Part shown: piece by piece, positions 592 to 3,234 of the stretch
Layout: every line of letters begins with the position of its first letter
Numbering within the stretch: position 1 is the stretch's first letter
Notes under the pieces: model-generated
What the model saw: the letters and a program-made list of their open reading frames with translations, nothing else
What the model was told of the DNA's origin: nothing
Database searches by the model: none
Made by a program: the position numbers and the translations under genes
Source: Bdellovibrionota bacterium
GTDB lineage: Bacteria; Bdellovibrionota_G; JALEGL01; DATDPG01
NCBI GenBank assembly: GCA_035292885.1
Contig: DATDPG010000187.1
Coordinates: 857 to 64,856 of the forward strand
Reading direction: 5' to 3'
DNA: 64,000 nt

Positions 592-610
592 TGAGAATGG
601 GATTATATCA

Positions 611-651
611 ATGAACCTATCGAAACAACAACCCGCGTCGAGGCGGCGTAG
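611..651 (+). repeat. decayed copy of the ~70-nt micro-ORF element
   Basis: 'atgaacctatcgaaacaacaacccgcgtcgaggcggcgtag' aligns with the elements at 1338-1385 and 2088-2135, including the identical 3' end '...cgcgtcga(g/a)gcggcgtagac'. It carries a 6-nt internal deletion and a frame disruption, so no intact ORF remains. Confidence 0.4.
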
Positions 652-671
652 ACTTGTGATAGAATCCCCAC

Positions 672-884
672 ATGGGTCCCAAAAGGAAACGGCGGATCAC
701 CGCTCGCAAAATCACTCTGGGCGAGGATGACGGATCGTTTGACCGGTCGTTCTGGCAGCAACTTTCTCCCGCGGAAAAAATGATTCAAACTTGGCAACTC
801 TCAAAAATGCACTGGGAAATTCACCGAAAGGGTTCTTTTGAACCAGGACTTCCTCGACGTATTGCGCGAGTTATTAGGGACTGA
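672..884 (+). CDS. small hypothetical protein (70 aa); partner gene of nucleotidyltransferase module 1
   Basis: The ORF overlaps the downstream nucleotidyltransferase gene by 47 nt. Its core '[20 protein letters not shown]' resembles the small ORFs at 1415 and 63291. Coding status is uncertain. Confidence 0.35.
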
Positions 885-1299
885 ATCGCGCTTCTTGGTG
901 GTCGGAGCCTTTGCCCTATCGGTTCATGCGGAACCTCGCGCAACAGGAGACCTCGATATTTGGGTGGAGGCGGCTCCAGAAAACGCGAAAAGGGTGTATC
1001 AGGCCTTGAAGGATTTCGGGGCTCCCCTTAAGGATCTCACGGTCGATGATTTGTCAAAGCCGGGGATCGTGTTTCAGATGGGTCTGCCACCGAACCGTAT
1101 TGATATTTTGACCAAAATTTCGGGGGTGACTTTTGAAGAGGCGTGGACGACGAGGGTGACGATCGACATTTCCGGCTTGAACGTCCCTGTGATTGGAAAA
1201 GAGCTGTTTTTGGTAAACAAGAAGGCAGCTGGCCGCCCGAAGGATCTGTTGGACGTCGATCTCGTTGAAAAGCATTCTCCCCCACCCAAAAAAACCTAA
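838..1299 (+). CDS. minimal nucleotidyltransferase-fold protein (AbiEii/MNT-like), module 1
   Basis: Polymerase-beta-type motif 'VVGAFALSVHAEPRATGDLDIWV' and C-terminal 'AAGRPKDLLDVDLV'. Paralogous to the genes at 1569-2054 and 63451-63906. The annotated start is TTG. Confidence 0.7.
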   Translation: MNQDFLDVLRELLGTESRFLVVGAFALSVHAEPRATGDLDIWVEAAPENAKRVYQALKDFGAPLKDLTVDDLSKPGIVFQMGLPPNRIDILTKISGVTFEEAWTTRVTIDISGLNVPVIGKELFLVNKKAAGRPKDLLDVDLVEKHSPPPKKT

Positions 1300-1337
1300 C
1301 TGAACCCCGCAAGCTTCATCGCACCGCCGACGAGGCG

Positions 1338-1385
1338 ATGTACAAGGTGAAAAACAGCACACGCAACCGGGTGGAGGCGGCGTAG
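1338..1385 (+). CDS. conserved 15-codon micro-ORF (MYKVKNSTRNRVEAA) with a 'gagg' Shine-Dalgarno-like motif
   Basis: 'gagg' lies 5 nt upstream of the ATG. The copy at 2088-2135 encodes the identical peptide and differs only at four synonymous third-codon positions. It could instead be a conserved RNA or DNA element. Confidence 0.3.
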   Translation: MYKVKNSTRNRVEAA

Positions 1386-1414
1386 AACTCCGAATCCTGG
1401 TAAAATGACTTCCC

Positions 1415-1612
1415 GTGCGGCGTATTATGAAAATTGATCCTCAAGAGACCGGTACCAACATAAAGGAGGAAGACTTCGATCTCGCTTACTATCGATCGCT
1501 TTCAACAACCCAACGATTTCGCATGATGTTAGACTGGTCCCTTGCGCTAGGAAAGATCGGCACGCGACGTGGCACAGCTCGAAAACCTGCTTCGGTTACT
1601 AAACGCCTATAA
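1415..1612 (+). CDS. small hypothetical protein (65 aa); partner gene of nucleotidyltransferase module 2
   Basis: Overlaps the downstream nucleotidyltransferase gene by 44 nt. Core 'DFDLAYYRSLSTTQRFRMMLDW' is similar to small protein 1. An alternative start is MKIDP at 1427. Confidence 0.35.
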   Translation: MRRIMKIDPQETGTNIKEEDFDLAYYRSLSTTQRFRMMLDWSLALGKIGTRRGTARKPASVTKRL

Positions 1613-2054
1613 AGTCCGATACGTCATCATCGGAGCTGCGGCGTTTGTCGCTCATGGATGGTTCCGCGCCACACGCGACTTGGATCTATTTGTGGCGAAC
1701 GACGATGAGAACCTGGTTCGATTGCGCAAGGCTCTGTCGGAGTTTGGATACGACCTGTCCGACGCTACTACGGAGGATTTTAAGAAATACAAAATCCTTT
1801 TTCGGCAGTACGATTTTCCCTTGGATATTCATCCAATGGTTAAGGGAGCTTCCAGCTTTGAAGGGGTGTGGAAGCGTAGAAAGGCATCGACTATCGGAAA
1901 TGTGCTTACGAATTTCGTCTCGTTGACCGATCTAATCTCGATGAAACGAGCCGCCGGGAGACCGAAGGATCGCATCGACCTTGAGCAATTACGAAAACTG
2001 CAGCGAAAAAATTCAAAAAAAGGGAAAAAGAGAAGTCGGCCTCGATCAAACTAG
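1569..2054 (+). CDS. minimal nucleotidyltransferase-fold protein (AbiEii/MNT-like), module 2
   Basis: 'YVIIGAAAFVAHGWFRATRDLDLFV' and C-terminal 'AAGRPKDRIDLEQL', followed by a lysine/arginine-rich tail. It aligns with nucleotidyltransferase 1 along its whole length. Confidence 0.7.
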   Translation: MAQLENLLRLLNAYKVRYVIIGAAAFVAHGWFRATRDLDLFVANDDENLVRLRKALSEFGYDLSDATTEDFKKYKILFRQYDFPLDIHPMVKGASSFEGVWKRRKASTIGNVLTNFVSLTDLISMKRAAGRPKDRIDLEQLRKLQRKNSKKGKKRSRPRSN

Positions 2055-2087
2055 GAAAGCCTCCCGAGCCACGCCGCCGGCGAGGCA

Positions 2088-2135
2088 ATGTACAAGGTGA
2101 AAAACAGCACCCGCAACCGCGTCGAAGCGGCGTAG
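2088..2135 (+). CDS. conserved 15-codon micro-ORF, second copy (MYKVKNSTRNRVEAA)
   Basis: Same peptide as the copy at 1338-1385. 'gagg' lies 5 nt upstream of the ATG. Its stop codon abuts the stop of the convergent lipoprotein gene. Confidence 0.3.
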   Translation: MYKVKNSTRNRVEAA

Positions 2136-2136
2136 A

Positions 2137-3234
2137 CTAAGGCGTTATTGGCGTGAACAACGTGTAAAACGCCACAGCGGCCGAATAGTCTGCCCGGTAG
2201 TAGTAACAGAGATTTGGCGCGCCCGATTGGTAATTGACATTCCCAAACGAAGGACCGGTATATCGTCCGTTGGCATCTGTCGTCGCCTGAGTGCCGTATT
2301 GTGCCGAGGGTAGAATATCAATTGGGTTTGTAGGGCACGTGCTGTAATAGCCTACTCGATACCTGATATCCTGATTTGGAACAGCGGTGCACCCTTCGAA
2401 AAGCAACTGCAGTGTTGGCATAAAGGCCGTTTGGTTGTCCGGCTGCGATGTCGGCAACACCGCATCCAAGGAAAGAAATCGCAGTGTGGGCCACGTCTGA
2501 ACCGTGGTTTTGCTTGGAGGCACGTTTGTGCCGACCGGCGCTTCGACTAAAATATCCCCGACAGCGGGTGGTGTTGCTCCGGCATTCGCGGGGGCACGTA
2601 CAATAAACGAGATCTTGCCACCTCCGTCTGTTTGTAAGTCGACCGACTTCGTATCCCCATTCAATATAAGACCATTCTCAGGGGTAACTTTCAGGAGAAG
2701 GCCCGAAACACCGTTGTTGTACTTATCGCTCAACTTCACTACCCACTTGCTTTCTTTGTCAACGCTCGTGCACGTTGCTGCAGTAACAGGCGATAATGTT
2801 GTCGGAGCATCTCTTACTGCCATGACATCAAAAAAAACCGTCCGATTTTCGTCGTTGTTCGGGTCGGGAAGCAATCGAGCCTTCACCTTCGCAGCGCCGG
2901 CGACGGTCGTCAGCTCGGCGGACACTGTGGCTTTGCCGTCCAAGTCTGTCTGAATTTCCGAAGCTCCCAAGCGAACCGGGCCGGATTCGACACCAAACTC
3001 CACTTTTGCACCGATCAACGGGTTACCGGAACCATCGATCGCAGCAACGACCAGATCGGAAAGTTTTGTCGTCACGGTTGCGCTTTGGCTGTTCCCACCC
3101 ACGATGATCAAACGTTCGGCGCCTGTCGCCTGTTGCTGAAGGTTTTGCCTTGTCGGTTCATCCTGAATTCCGCACGAAAAGACGAAGGCAAAAAGTGAAA
3201 GGGGAATTGCCTGGAATTGAATTTGTCTGGGCAT
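2137..3234 (-). CDS. secreted lipoprotein with a bacterial Ig-like (Big_1/invasin-like) domain
   Basis: Signal peptide plus lipobox 'LSLFAFVFSCG'. GGAG sits 6 nt upstream of the ATG at 3234. Big-like stretch 'LSDLVVAAIDGSGNPLIGAKVEF'. The six-frame ORF extends to 3384, but the start with the ribosome-binding site is at 3234. Confidence 0.65.
   Translation of the reverse strand: MPRQIQFQAIPLSLFAFVFSCGIQDEPTRQNLQQQATGAERLIIVGGNSQSATVTTKLSDLVVAAIDGSGNPLIGAKVEFGVESGPVRLGASEIQTDLDGKATVSAELTTVAGAAKVKARLLPDPNNDENRTVFFDVMAVRDAPTTLSPVTAATCTSVDKESKWVVKLSDKYNNGVSGLLLKVTPENGLILNGDTKSVDLQTDGGGKISFIVRAPANAGATPPAVGDILVEAPVGTNVPPSKTTVQTWPTLRFLSLDAVLPTSQPDNQTAFMPTLQLLFEGCTAVPNQDIRYRVGYYSTCPTNPIDILPSAQYGTQATTDANGRYTGPSFGNVNYQSGAPNLCYYYRADYSAAVAFYTLFTPITP

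Follow-up and report, generated by a model that had tools for sequence, protein, structure and literature searches.

Two adjacent pairs of genes that have diverged deeply from each other but are separated by nearly identical DNA raise the question of how such an arrangement came about. The case studied here lies in a 64,000-nucleotide (nt) stretch of the genome of a Bdellovibrionota bacterium (contig DATDPG010000187.1 of assembly GCA_035292885.1, positions 857 to 64,856), referred to below as the window. Near its left end, two modules, B and C, each consist of a small open reading frame (ORF) that overlaps a gene for a minimal nucleotidyltransferase (NTase), and each is followed by an element of about 70 nt. 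An initial annotation of this DNA regarded the element as a junction element of the modules and proposed gene conversion or constraint on the junction as the cause of its uniformity. Judged from the sequence comparisons described here, the repeated element is the duplicated 3' end of a neighboring GGDEF gene, stop codon included, and is not borne by the modules. The modules are probably MenAT-like toxin-antitoxin cassettes that were inserted separately behind the GGDEF stop codon and were stacked by "insertion with long target duplication".

Layout of the modules and repeats

Module B consists of a small ORF at 672-884 (70 aa) and an NTase gene at 838-1299 (153 aa; NT153), which overlap by 47 nt, and module C consists of a small ORF at 1415-1612 (65 aa) and an NTase gene at 1569-2054 (161 aa; NT161), which overlap by 44 nt; all four are on the plus strand. 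The common layout described in the initial annotation was borne out (672-1299 and 1415-2054). Both NTases also carry the motifs that it had pointed to, GA.A...H[AG]..R.T.DLD and AAGRPKD, and their identity, put at about 35%, was 34% over 151 aa. Between the two small proteins, only a short and weak match was found (29% over 24 aa, pairwise E-value 0.003), with an FD..(F/Y)...LS motif.

The two longer repeats, designated E2 and E3, are 63 nt each at 1324-1386 and 2074-2136 and are 90% identical to each other; when extended by BLAST, their limits are about 1317-1389 and 2063-2138. A third copy of 22 nt, designated E1, was found ahead of module B at 633-654. E1 is 95% identical to the last 22 nt of E3 (2117-2138) and 82% identical to E2, and weaker similarity may extend it back to about 622. 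A 26-nt core of the repeat occurred at two places only in the 64 kb, with none expected from 100 shuffles, and no short-range repeats of a comparable kind were found elsewhere in the window. Independent assemblies made of other samples (L002, L003, and L007) contained the identical arrangement at 99.96-100% identity. Therefore, the modules and repeats are not an assembly artifact. The GC content of the modules was 0.48-0.53, compared with 0.55-0.60 in the flanks.

The repeated element is the end of a GGDEF gene

On the source contig (L001, ena:ERZ27254861:k141_1929219; the window position is the L001 position minus 9163), a GAF-GGDEF gene (348 aa, plus strand) stops 37 nt to the left of the window. 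The C-terminus of its product reads SDEAMYKVKNSTRNRVEAA, or in a longer stretch IHASDEAMYKVKNSTRNRVEAA, up to the stop codon. When translated in one frame, the copies end in TADEAMYKVKNSTRNRVEAA and AAGEAMYKVKNSTRNRVEAA before a stop codon, which is the same peptide as that of the gene and a typical C-terminus of a GGDEF domain. E2 (1317-1389, plus strand) reads HRTADEAMYKVKNSTRNRVEAA before a TAG at 1383-1385; E3 (2063-2138, plus strand) reads SHAAGEAMYKVKNSTRNRVEAA before a TAG at 2133-2135, which is followed by ACT; and the short E1 (633-654, plus strand) ends in RVEAA before a TAG at 649-651, again followed by ACT. The gene end itself (E0) was 93% identical to E2 over 58 nt, with 34 identical bases in common, and 90-92% identical to E3 over 66-72 nt. 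Because the copies read the GGDEF C-terminal peptide at 90-93% DNA identity, the supposed junction element is regarded as a duplicated host gene end. The initial annotation had counted three elements for two modules. The three copies within the window were confirmed, two of them 90% identical and one short and preceding the modules, but the copies total four, since the functional gene end lies just outside.

All other matches to the element were to the conserved ends of GGDEF genes. An exact-pattern scan found nothing in the genome collection, and in metagenomes it retrieved the same organism and one unrelated GGDEF gene. No Rfam match was obtained in the region at an E-value of 1 or below or window-wide at the gathering score, no tRNA was found in the window, and DNA folding gave no stable fold of E2 or E3 on either strand (z-scores of −0.05 to +0.33 relative to shuffled sequences). 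An RNA element was therefore rejected for want of both an Rfam match and a stable fold. A dispersed repeat or miniature inverted-repeat transposable element (MITE) was also rejected, because the element occurs nowhere else in the window and beside no other NTase module; its absence from all other homologous modules likewise contradicts a role as a junction element of the modules.

These properties bear on whether the stack is an integron-like cassette array in which the ~70-nt repeats are attC sites. The cassettes are indeed small, mostly co-oriented, and inclusive of toxin-antitoxin pairs, and they are parted by similar 60-80-nt repeats located just past stop codons. However, neither repeat strand folds better than shuffled DNA, and the repeats are in-frame copies of the GGDEF coding end. 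In addition, the head of the array is the GAF-GGDEF gene and not intI, no integrase domain is on record for the genes called within 9 kb upstream, and the cassettes have their own putative promoters. The probability of an integron-like array is thus next to negligible.

E3 is in frame with the NT161 gene (2052-2135) and is parted from it only by the TAG of that gene; read-through would add ESLPSHAAGEAMYKVKNSTRNRVEAA. This is probably a coincidence (1 in 3), and E2 is out of frame with the NT153 gene.

Between the functional gene end and E1 sits a further cassette on the minus strand (8-591), designated module A. It encodes a DUF5615/PIN-like candidate toxin of 111 aa (8-343; PF18480, E-value 3.7e-18; PIN_10, E-value 4.4e-6) and a DUF433 candidate antitoxin of 83 aa (340-591; PF04255, E-value 9.3e-24), whose genes overlap by 4 nt.

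Related genomes with empty sites

A search with the GGDEF protein identified three close relatives with 68-70% identity (L008, L009, and L010), which are labeled as Bdellovibrionota, Pseudomonadota, and an unclassified "uncultured bacterium" metagenome-assembled genome (MAG); Bdellovibrionota is the closest to the annotation of the source contig. The gene order GcvP, GcvH, GcvT, FolD, DivIVA, YggS, Maf, GGDEF, Tam41, P5CR, and TruA is shared by the relatives and the source genome on the two sides of the insertion site, with no P5CR match in this conserved block of L010. The distance from the GGDEF stop codon to the start of Tam41 is no more than about 25 nt in each of the three relatives. In the source genome, this interval is about 5 kb and contains the three cassettes, including the DUF5615/DUF433 pair that is absent from the interval in the relatives, and two minus-strand genes. 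Since the relatives have GGDEF directly followed by Tam41, the cassettes are insertions.

The two minus-strand genes (2137-4820) encode proteins of about 415 aa (with a weak Big_1 match) and about 456 aa (with a lipoprotein-like N-terminus). Both are inside the segment absent from the relatives, and no repeat flanks them.

In L009, a module whose NTase and small ORF are 77% and 62% identical, respectively, to those of module B is located between YggS and DivIVA and is co-oriented with YggS. On either side of it is a perfect direct repeat of 23 nt, GCGCCGCCATCTTTGGCCCACGG, which is the YggS coding end (..GAAIFGPR); after the second copy come the last codons of the original YggS gene with their stop codon and then the DivIVA start. 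With respect to this insert, YggS is directly followed by DivIVA in L008, L010, and the source genome. The repeat from the YggS end bears no relationship to the GGDEF-end repeats, either in sequence or in length. Recurrence of the ~70-nt element with the modules of relatives, for which the initial annotation had proposed a check, was not seen; in L009, the end of a different host gene takes its place. The DNA homology between module B and the L009 module starts exactly at TGTGATAGAAT (655-665, plus strand; 11 of 11 nt identical), which abuts the host repeat, and stops at the NTase stop codon. Because the homology has these limits, the mobile unit, as delimited by this alignment, is the promoter plus two genes, about 0.65-0.7 kb.

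At the YggS-DivIVA junction of L010 (4828-6637), a 125-aa helix-turn-helix-like protein, a 210-aa NTase (..VAGGIAANLF..RLTQDVDLLLL..), and a 262-aa protein are encoded. NTase modules seem to have landed at this junction repeatedly.

The relatives also bear on the view that a unit of small ORF, NTase, and element was tandemly duplicated on the spot, after which the genes diverged deeply while conversion or constraint held the junctions alike. The same gene layout, the near-equal periods of 734 and 750 nt, and the far greater likeness of the repeats than of the genes would all fit. Such a history is nevertheless very improbable. NT153 has relatives elsewhere at 77% and 70% identity, and the closest homologs of NT161 elsewhere are 68%, 64%, and 61% identical, compared with 34% between the two. 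Furthermore, the site is empty in the relatives, the element is the host GGDEF end and also follows the unrelated DUF5615/DUF433 cassette, and it has neither an RNA family match nor a stable fold. The closer relationship of NT153 and NT161 to proteins elsewhere than to each other points to serial independent insertions and not to local duplication with gene conversion. The contrast between the diverged genes and the similar elements is explained by the separate acquisition of the two cassettes at the same target; nothing here requires the gene conversion or junction constraint suggested in the initial annotation.

In general, islands that depend on an integrase typically show direct repeats of the 3' end of a restored gene and form tandem arrays at a single site. 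In the same manner, a recombinase of the tyrosine or serine type supplied in trans, with the GGDEF 3' end as its attachment site, could have produced a tandem accretion of nonautonomous elements like that of cis-mobilizable elements (CIMEs) or satellites. However, no recombinase domain, whether of an integrase or a transposase, is on record among the genes called in 20 kb around the site. The cassettes are merely ~0.7 kb and have no conserved right end, the L009 cassette is at an unrelated target, where the repeat differs in its sequence and in being 23 nt long instead of 63-76 nt, and most other module copies have no flanking repeat. Given the differing targets and the differing repeat lengths (23 nt at YggS and about 22, 63-73, and 66-76 nt at GGDEF), the involvement of a site-specific recombinase is considered improbable. 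The classes of insertion, including integrase-mediated ones, have been summarized previously (PMC2853133).

The NTase as a MenT1-like candidate toxin

When a profile of 35 homologs was compared with the PDB, MenT1 of Mycobacterium tuberculosis (Rv0078A; PDB 8AN4, PMC10435456) was the sole convincing match (E-value 4e-8, residues 5-145 of 149). The AlphaFold (AF2) model of NT153 had a pLDDT of 92, and in a Foldseek search with this model, ranks 1 to 5 were all occupied by MenT1 (TMq 0.69-0.70, 24-25% identity), followed by LnuA, TM1012, and ANT(2''). Residues T36, D38, D40, K128, D136, and D139 were invariant in the 35 homologs. T36, D38, and D40 align with T39, D41, and D43 of MenT1, and the C-terminal Lys and Asp motifs also align. 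The functional residues of MenT1 include the phospho-acceptor T39, D41 of the DxD, the catalytic lysine K137, and the C-terminal D152; MenA1 induces autophosphorylation of MenT1 at T39, and D41 and K137 are required (PMC11375011).

In Pfam, NT161 scored above the cut-offs of two families of uncharacterized small nucleotidyltransferases, DUF6036 (PF19502; 33.2 bits, cut-off 23.6) and DUF2204 (PF09970; 30.2 bits, cut-off 20.3), and its homologs carry these domains. NT153 was narrowly under the DUF6036 cut-off of 23.6 with 22.1 bits, and most of its homologs have no precomputed Pfam domain. No NCBIfam match was obtained, and the PADLOC AbiEii matches were weak (E-values 0.014-0.017). More than 1,700 homologs of NT153 were found at an E-value of 1e-5 or below, and the source-given names among the best 120 listed were all generic (hypothetical protein or predicted nucleotidyltransferase).

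The gene pair resembles MenAT1 (Rv0078B-Rv0078A) in several respects. MenT1 is the best match of the NTase by sequence and structure; the active-site Thr, the DxD, the Lys, and the C-terminal Asp are conserved; and a short, mostly helical partner (65-70 aa here) is encoded immediately upstream. The length of MenA1 is 68 aa (PMC10435456). On the other hand, the identity to MenT1 is about 25%, the NTases here are ~150 aa compared with 197 aa for MenT1, and, as a further difference from MenAT1, the two genes overlap by ~45-50 nt. The module also shares with HEPN-MNT systems a minimal Pol-beta-type NTase in a two-gene arrangement, but it has no HEPN partner, and its NTase is most closely related to toxins (MenT1) and not to MNT antitoxins. 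Based on sequence and the predicted structure, the NTase is related to the MenT1 toxin and lies outside the curated Pfam AbiEii boundary, and by analogy it would be the toxin of the pair.

The small partner protein, gene overlap, and promoters

A small ORF was found upstream of every homologous NTase examined, namely at nine distinct other sites (L009, L088-L092, and L095-L097; L093 and L094 repeat the L092 locus) and in a third module of the window. The third module (63291-63906, plus strand) consists of a small ORF at 63291-63479 (62 aa) and an NTase gene at 63451-63906 (151 aa), the product of which was 33-35% identical to both other NTases by tblastn and gave a weak PADLOC AbiEii match (E-value 8e-4). 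It adjoins a divergently oriented gene at the far end of the window, and the contig ends within its downstream flank.

The small ORF was seldom called as a gene in the contigs examined, a 64-aa gene call in L095 being an example of one that was. The consensus of its product is ..T.RK....DD.FD.EFW..L.P.ER....W.LS..LW.....EPGLPR..ARV.R. The module B small protein is conserved in relatives and had 71 cluster representatives at an E-value of 1e-3 or below. That of module C is conserved 5' of the NT161 homologs in L092 and L095 (KVDP..FDL.YYRSLTT.QRFRM). No Pfam match was obtained for the small protein, Rv0078B and AbiEi included. The AF2 model of the module B small protein (overall pLDDT 80) consists of helices 22-29 and 33-51, with pLDDT above 90 there, and flexible tails. 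The absence of a recognizable fold stated in the initial annotation held in this two-helix model, with no Pfam, PDB, or fold match. The small protein is a candidate antitoxin by analogy, representing a conserved, unannotated two-helix family. The suggestion of a toxin-antitoxin-like two-gene unit is likewise strengthened, by analogy, by the relationship of the NTase to MenT1 and by the small ORF upstream at the nine other sites and in the third module. The initial annotation had also raised the prospect of NTase homologs occurring without the small ORF and without the element: no homolog examined lacked the small ORF, but this element was missing from all of them.

The overlap between the small ORF and the NTase gene (838-884 and 1569-1612; also in L009 and L088-L091) is 44-50 nt, with both frames conserved; the small-ORF frame reads EPGLPRR.ARVIR. 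The NTase starts in the overlap are all GTG or TTG. The conserved overlap suggests tight translational coupling; alternatively, the small ORF and NTase may form a frameshift fusion.

A TGnTAnAAT box, read by eye, is present 6-10 nt ahead of the start codon in most modules. The extended −10-like box TGTGATAGAAT is located 6 nt before the ATG of the module B small ORF, and TGGTAAAAT (1398-1406, plus strand), read from the sequence, 8 nt before the GTG of the module C small ORF. In the homologous modules of L092 and L095, TGATAAAAT and TGTTAGAAT are found 6 nt ahead of the ATG, and in the third module of the window TGTTAGAAT (63276-63284) is 6 nt ahead of the ATG. A σ70 consensus scan found no −35/−10 pair. 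By inspection of these boxes, a nearly leaderless mRNA transcribed from an extended −10 promoter is suggested.

Origin of the stack

From left to right, the locus consists of the gene end, the DUF5615/DUF433 pair, E1, the small ORF and NTase of module B, E2, the small ORF and NTase of module C, and E3. Separate insertion with long target duplication, which we consider the probable origin of this stack, would proceed as follows. Three self-contained cassettes would have entered, each in its own event, just past the stop codon of the chromosomal GAF-GGDEF gene, and every insertion would leave a direct duplicate of the last ~25-75 nt of the gene on the far side of the cassette. Because the host gene would keep its intact end, the insertions would persist. 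Cassettes B and C would each comprise an extended −10 promoter 6-8 nt before the first start codon, a 65-70-aa two-helix protein, and an overlapping ~155-aa MenT1-type NTase. If the cassettes act as MenAT1 does, tRNA charging would be blocked by nucleotides that the NTase adds at the 3' end, and the small protein would neutralize the NTase by occluding the active site and/or by inducing autophosphorylation of the Thr two residues before the DxD. The route of insertion was apparently independent of a recombinase. In its likeliest form, incoming DNA would be anchored by GGDEF homology or microhomology, with illegitimate joining upstream of the gene end. A GC(N)CCGCC motif is found no more than 12 nt from the start of the right-hand repeats, and the left end of the module opens with ACT, as in the native TAGACT; GC(N)CCGCC and ACT could be microhomology joints or chance occurrences.

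Several observations weigh against this origin or against the MenAT-like nature of the cassettes. Of about 10 module sites, only this locus and L009 had flanking duplications. The seven other module sites had no flanking repeat, a 14-nt match in L090 being misplaced relative to the gene ends; either such scars decay or the insertion mode is not universal. Strain variants with an empty or partly filled site were sought, and none was found, all contigs of the organism being identical. As for the proteins, both NTases stay below the Pfam cut-off for AbiEii (PF08843, DUF1814; 22.5 bits), with 18.3 bits for NT153 and 19.0 bits for NT161, and in this they are unlike the MenT/AbiEii family. The small protein had no detectable similarity to MenA1 or to any solved structure in PDB sequence and fold searches; it matched neither of the antitoxin classes known for this family, MenA1 (Rv0078B) and the COG5340 AbiEi/MenA3 proteins, in sequence or fold. 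Finally, the copies themselves do not look like simple duplicates of the present gene end. The private substitutions of E2 and E3 are at third codon positions in 5 of 6 cases in the core, or 5 of 7 when the boundary column is included (binomial p = 0.018-0.045), a sample of only 6-7 substitutions. In addition, E1 is closer to E2 and E3 than to the present gene end: E1 to E3 have GCGGCGTAG in common, whereas the working gene now has GCCGCGTAA. This complicates a simple order in which the newest insertion is the nearest. These sequences suggest that the displaced copies formerly served as functional gene ends in other strains, a history that fits better than simple in-place duplication.

The third-position bias fits import from related strains via a homologous GGDEF anchor, or Campbell-type entry of a circle that carries a cassette and a repeat. 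These possibilities lead to a homology-driven exchange of cassettes, in which a cassette travels with its GGDEF-end copy, either as a circle looped out between repeats or as a GGDEF-anchored linear fragment. It would enter by host homologous recombination of the Campbell type or one-sided, and the repeats would be alleles of donor strains instead of in-place duplications. The predominance of third-position differences is as expected for working gene ends, the present gene end departs from the E1-E3 consensus at its very tip, and the 34 identical bases common to the gene end and E2 suffice for RecA-type pairing. Such exchange, however, leaves the first arrival at a new target unexplained, as at the YggS end in L009 with its host-specific 23-nt repeat. 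In view of this, of the small number of substitutions, and of the lack of recovered strain variants, it is unlikely, though plausible.

A broader form of this idea, which we regard as quite unlikely, is that the stack is a recombinase-free counterpart of an integron, with the duplicated host gene end serving as a portable homology arm. It is similarly doubtful that host recombination loops out such cassettes, swaps them between strains, and re-inserts them, building arrays behind ordinary genes. If this were true, the third-position bias in the displaced copies would be a trace of inter-strain traffic.

Comparison with known insertions

Insertion with long target duplication was reportedly described for restriction-modification genes by Nobusato et al. 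in 2000. Restriction-modification insertions have long, variable target duplications, often across the stop codon of the neighboring gene, so that the host gene survives (PMC2853133). The cassettes resemble them as compact selfish units without a mobility gene, flanked by variable long direct repeats that are single at the empty site. In L008, L009, and L010, the orthologous site has no insert and a single copy of the repeat sequence, and the same applies to the L009 insert at the YggS-DivIVA junction of the other genomes. E2 (63-73 nt) and E3 (66-76 nt) exceed the direct-repeat length of 30 bp used by Furuta et al. (2010), while neither E1, with 22 nt, nor the L009 repeat, with 23 nt, reaches this value (PMC2853133). 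The class also calls for inserts of less than 20 kb that have no other mobile-element genes; here, the cassettes are ~0.7 kb, and no integrase or transposase domain is on record for the genes called in 20 kb. The locus differs from the restriction-modification insertions in its cargo, which consists of putative toxin-antitoxin pairs (DUF5615/DUF433 and small protein/NTase), and in the stacking of three insertions at one target. Small cassettes parted by similar repeats at the 3' end of a gene are also a feature of integron arrays and CIME-type islands. Unlike these, the locus has no integrase on record, no hairpin-forming attC, and no common core between the insertion sites. In its architecture, the locus is a toxin-antitoxin counterpart of a known kind of insertion and not a new genetic element or system class.

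A locus in L058 (897-1881, a Nitrospirota MAG) was considered as a second example and was not counted, because its 192-nt repeats (190/192) have terminal inverted repeats of their own; they are probably a MITE-like element and not a target duplication. Between these direct repeats is an overlapping pair of 87-aa and 79-aa ORFs, toxin-antitoxin-like by eye, and a truncated tyrosine-recombinase-like ORF is just upstream.

Other gene pairs in and near the window

Lineage-specific toxin-antitoxin pairs are scattered through the conserved gene block, and three further toxin-antitoxin-like pairs in it are likewise absent from the relatives. At 7648-8531, a 96-aa ORF lies upstream of the gene for a larger AbiEii-like NTase (211-268 aa; ..FHLAGGTALG..SVDFDFF..KLEAVGGRGSRKDFIDLYFLL). 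In comparison with the related MAGs, this pair is an insertion between P5CR and TruA, and it brings the number of NTase-type modules in the window to four. A Phd/YefM and PIN pair (6044-6768) is located between Tam41 and P5CR, and Maf and GGDEF are separated by a pair of a 92-aa protein and a PIN protein (to the left of the window, L001 7363-8072). The last two pairs are absent from these junctions in L008, L009, and L010, and no flanking repeats were seen. Farther into the window, a 37-nt direct repeat of 84% identity with a spacing of 252 nt (50247-50535) is probably an internal protein repeat.

Significance

Solitary toxin-antitoxin pairs are notoriously mobile, and their movement without a mobility gene is poorly understood. 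The locus described here provides a clean footprint of such movement, in which the mobile unit, from promoter to stop codon, is delimited to within about 20 nt. The same type of cassette is found at two different host gene ends, a host-derived duplication accompanies each cassette, and three insertions are stacked at a single target. The junction sequences and repeat lengths are concrete substrates for studying this mode of insertion, and the locus extends long target duplication, described for restriction-modification genes (PMC2853133), to toxin-antitoxin genes. By analogy with MenAT1, a large family of NTases is also flagged as likely MenT-type toxins that would be paired with a new small antitoxin.

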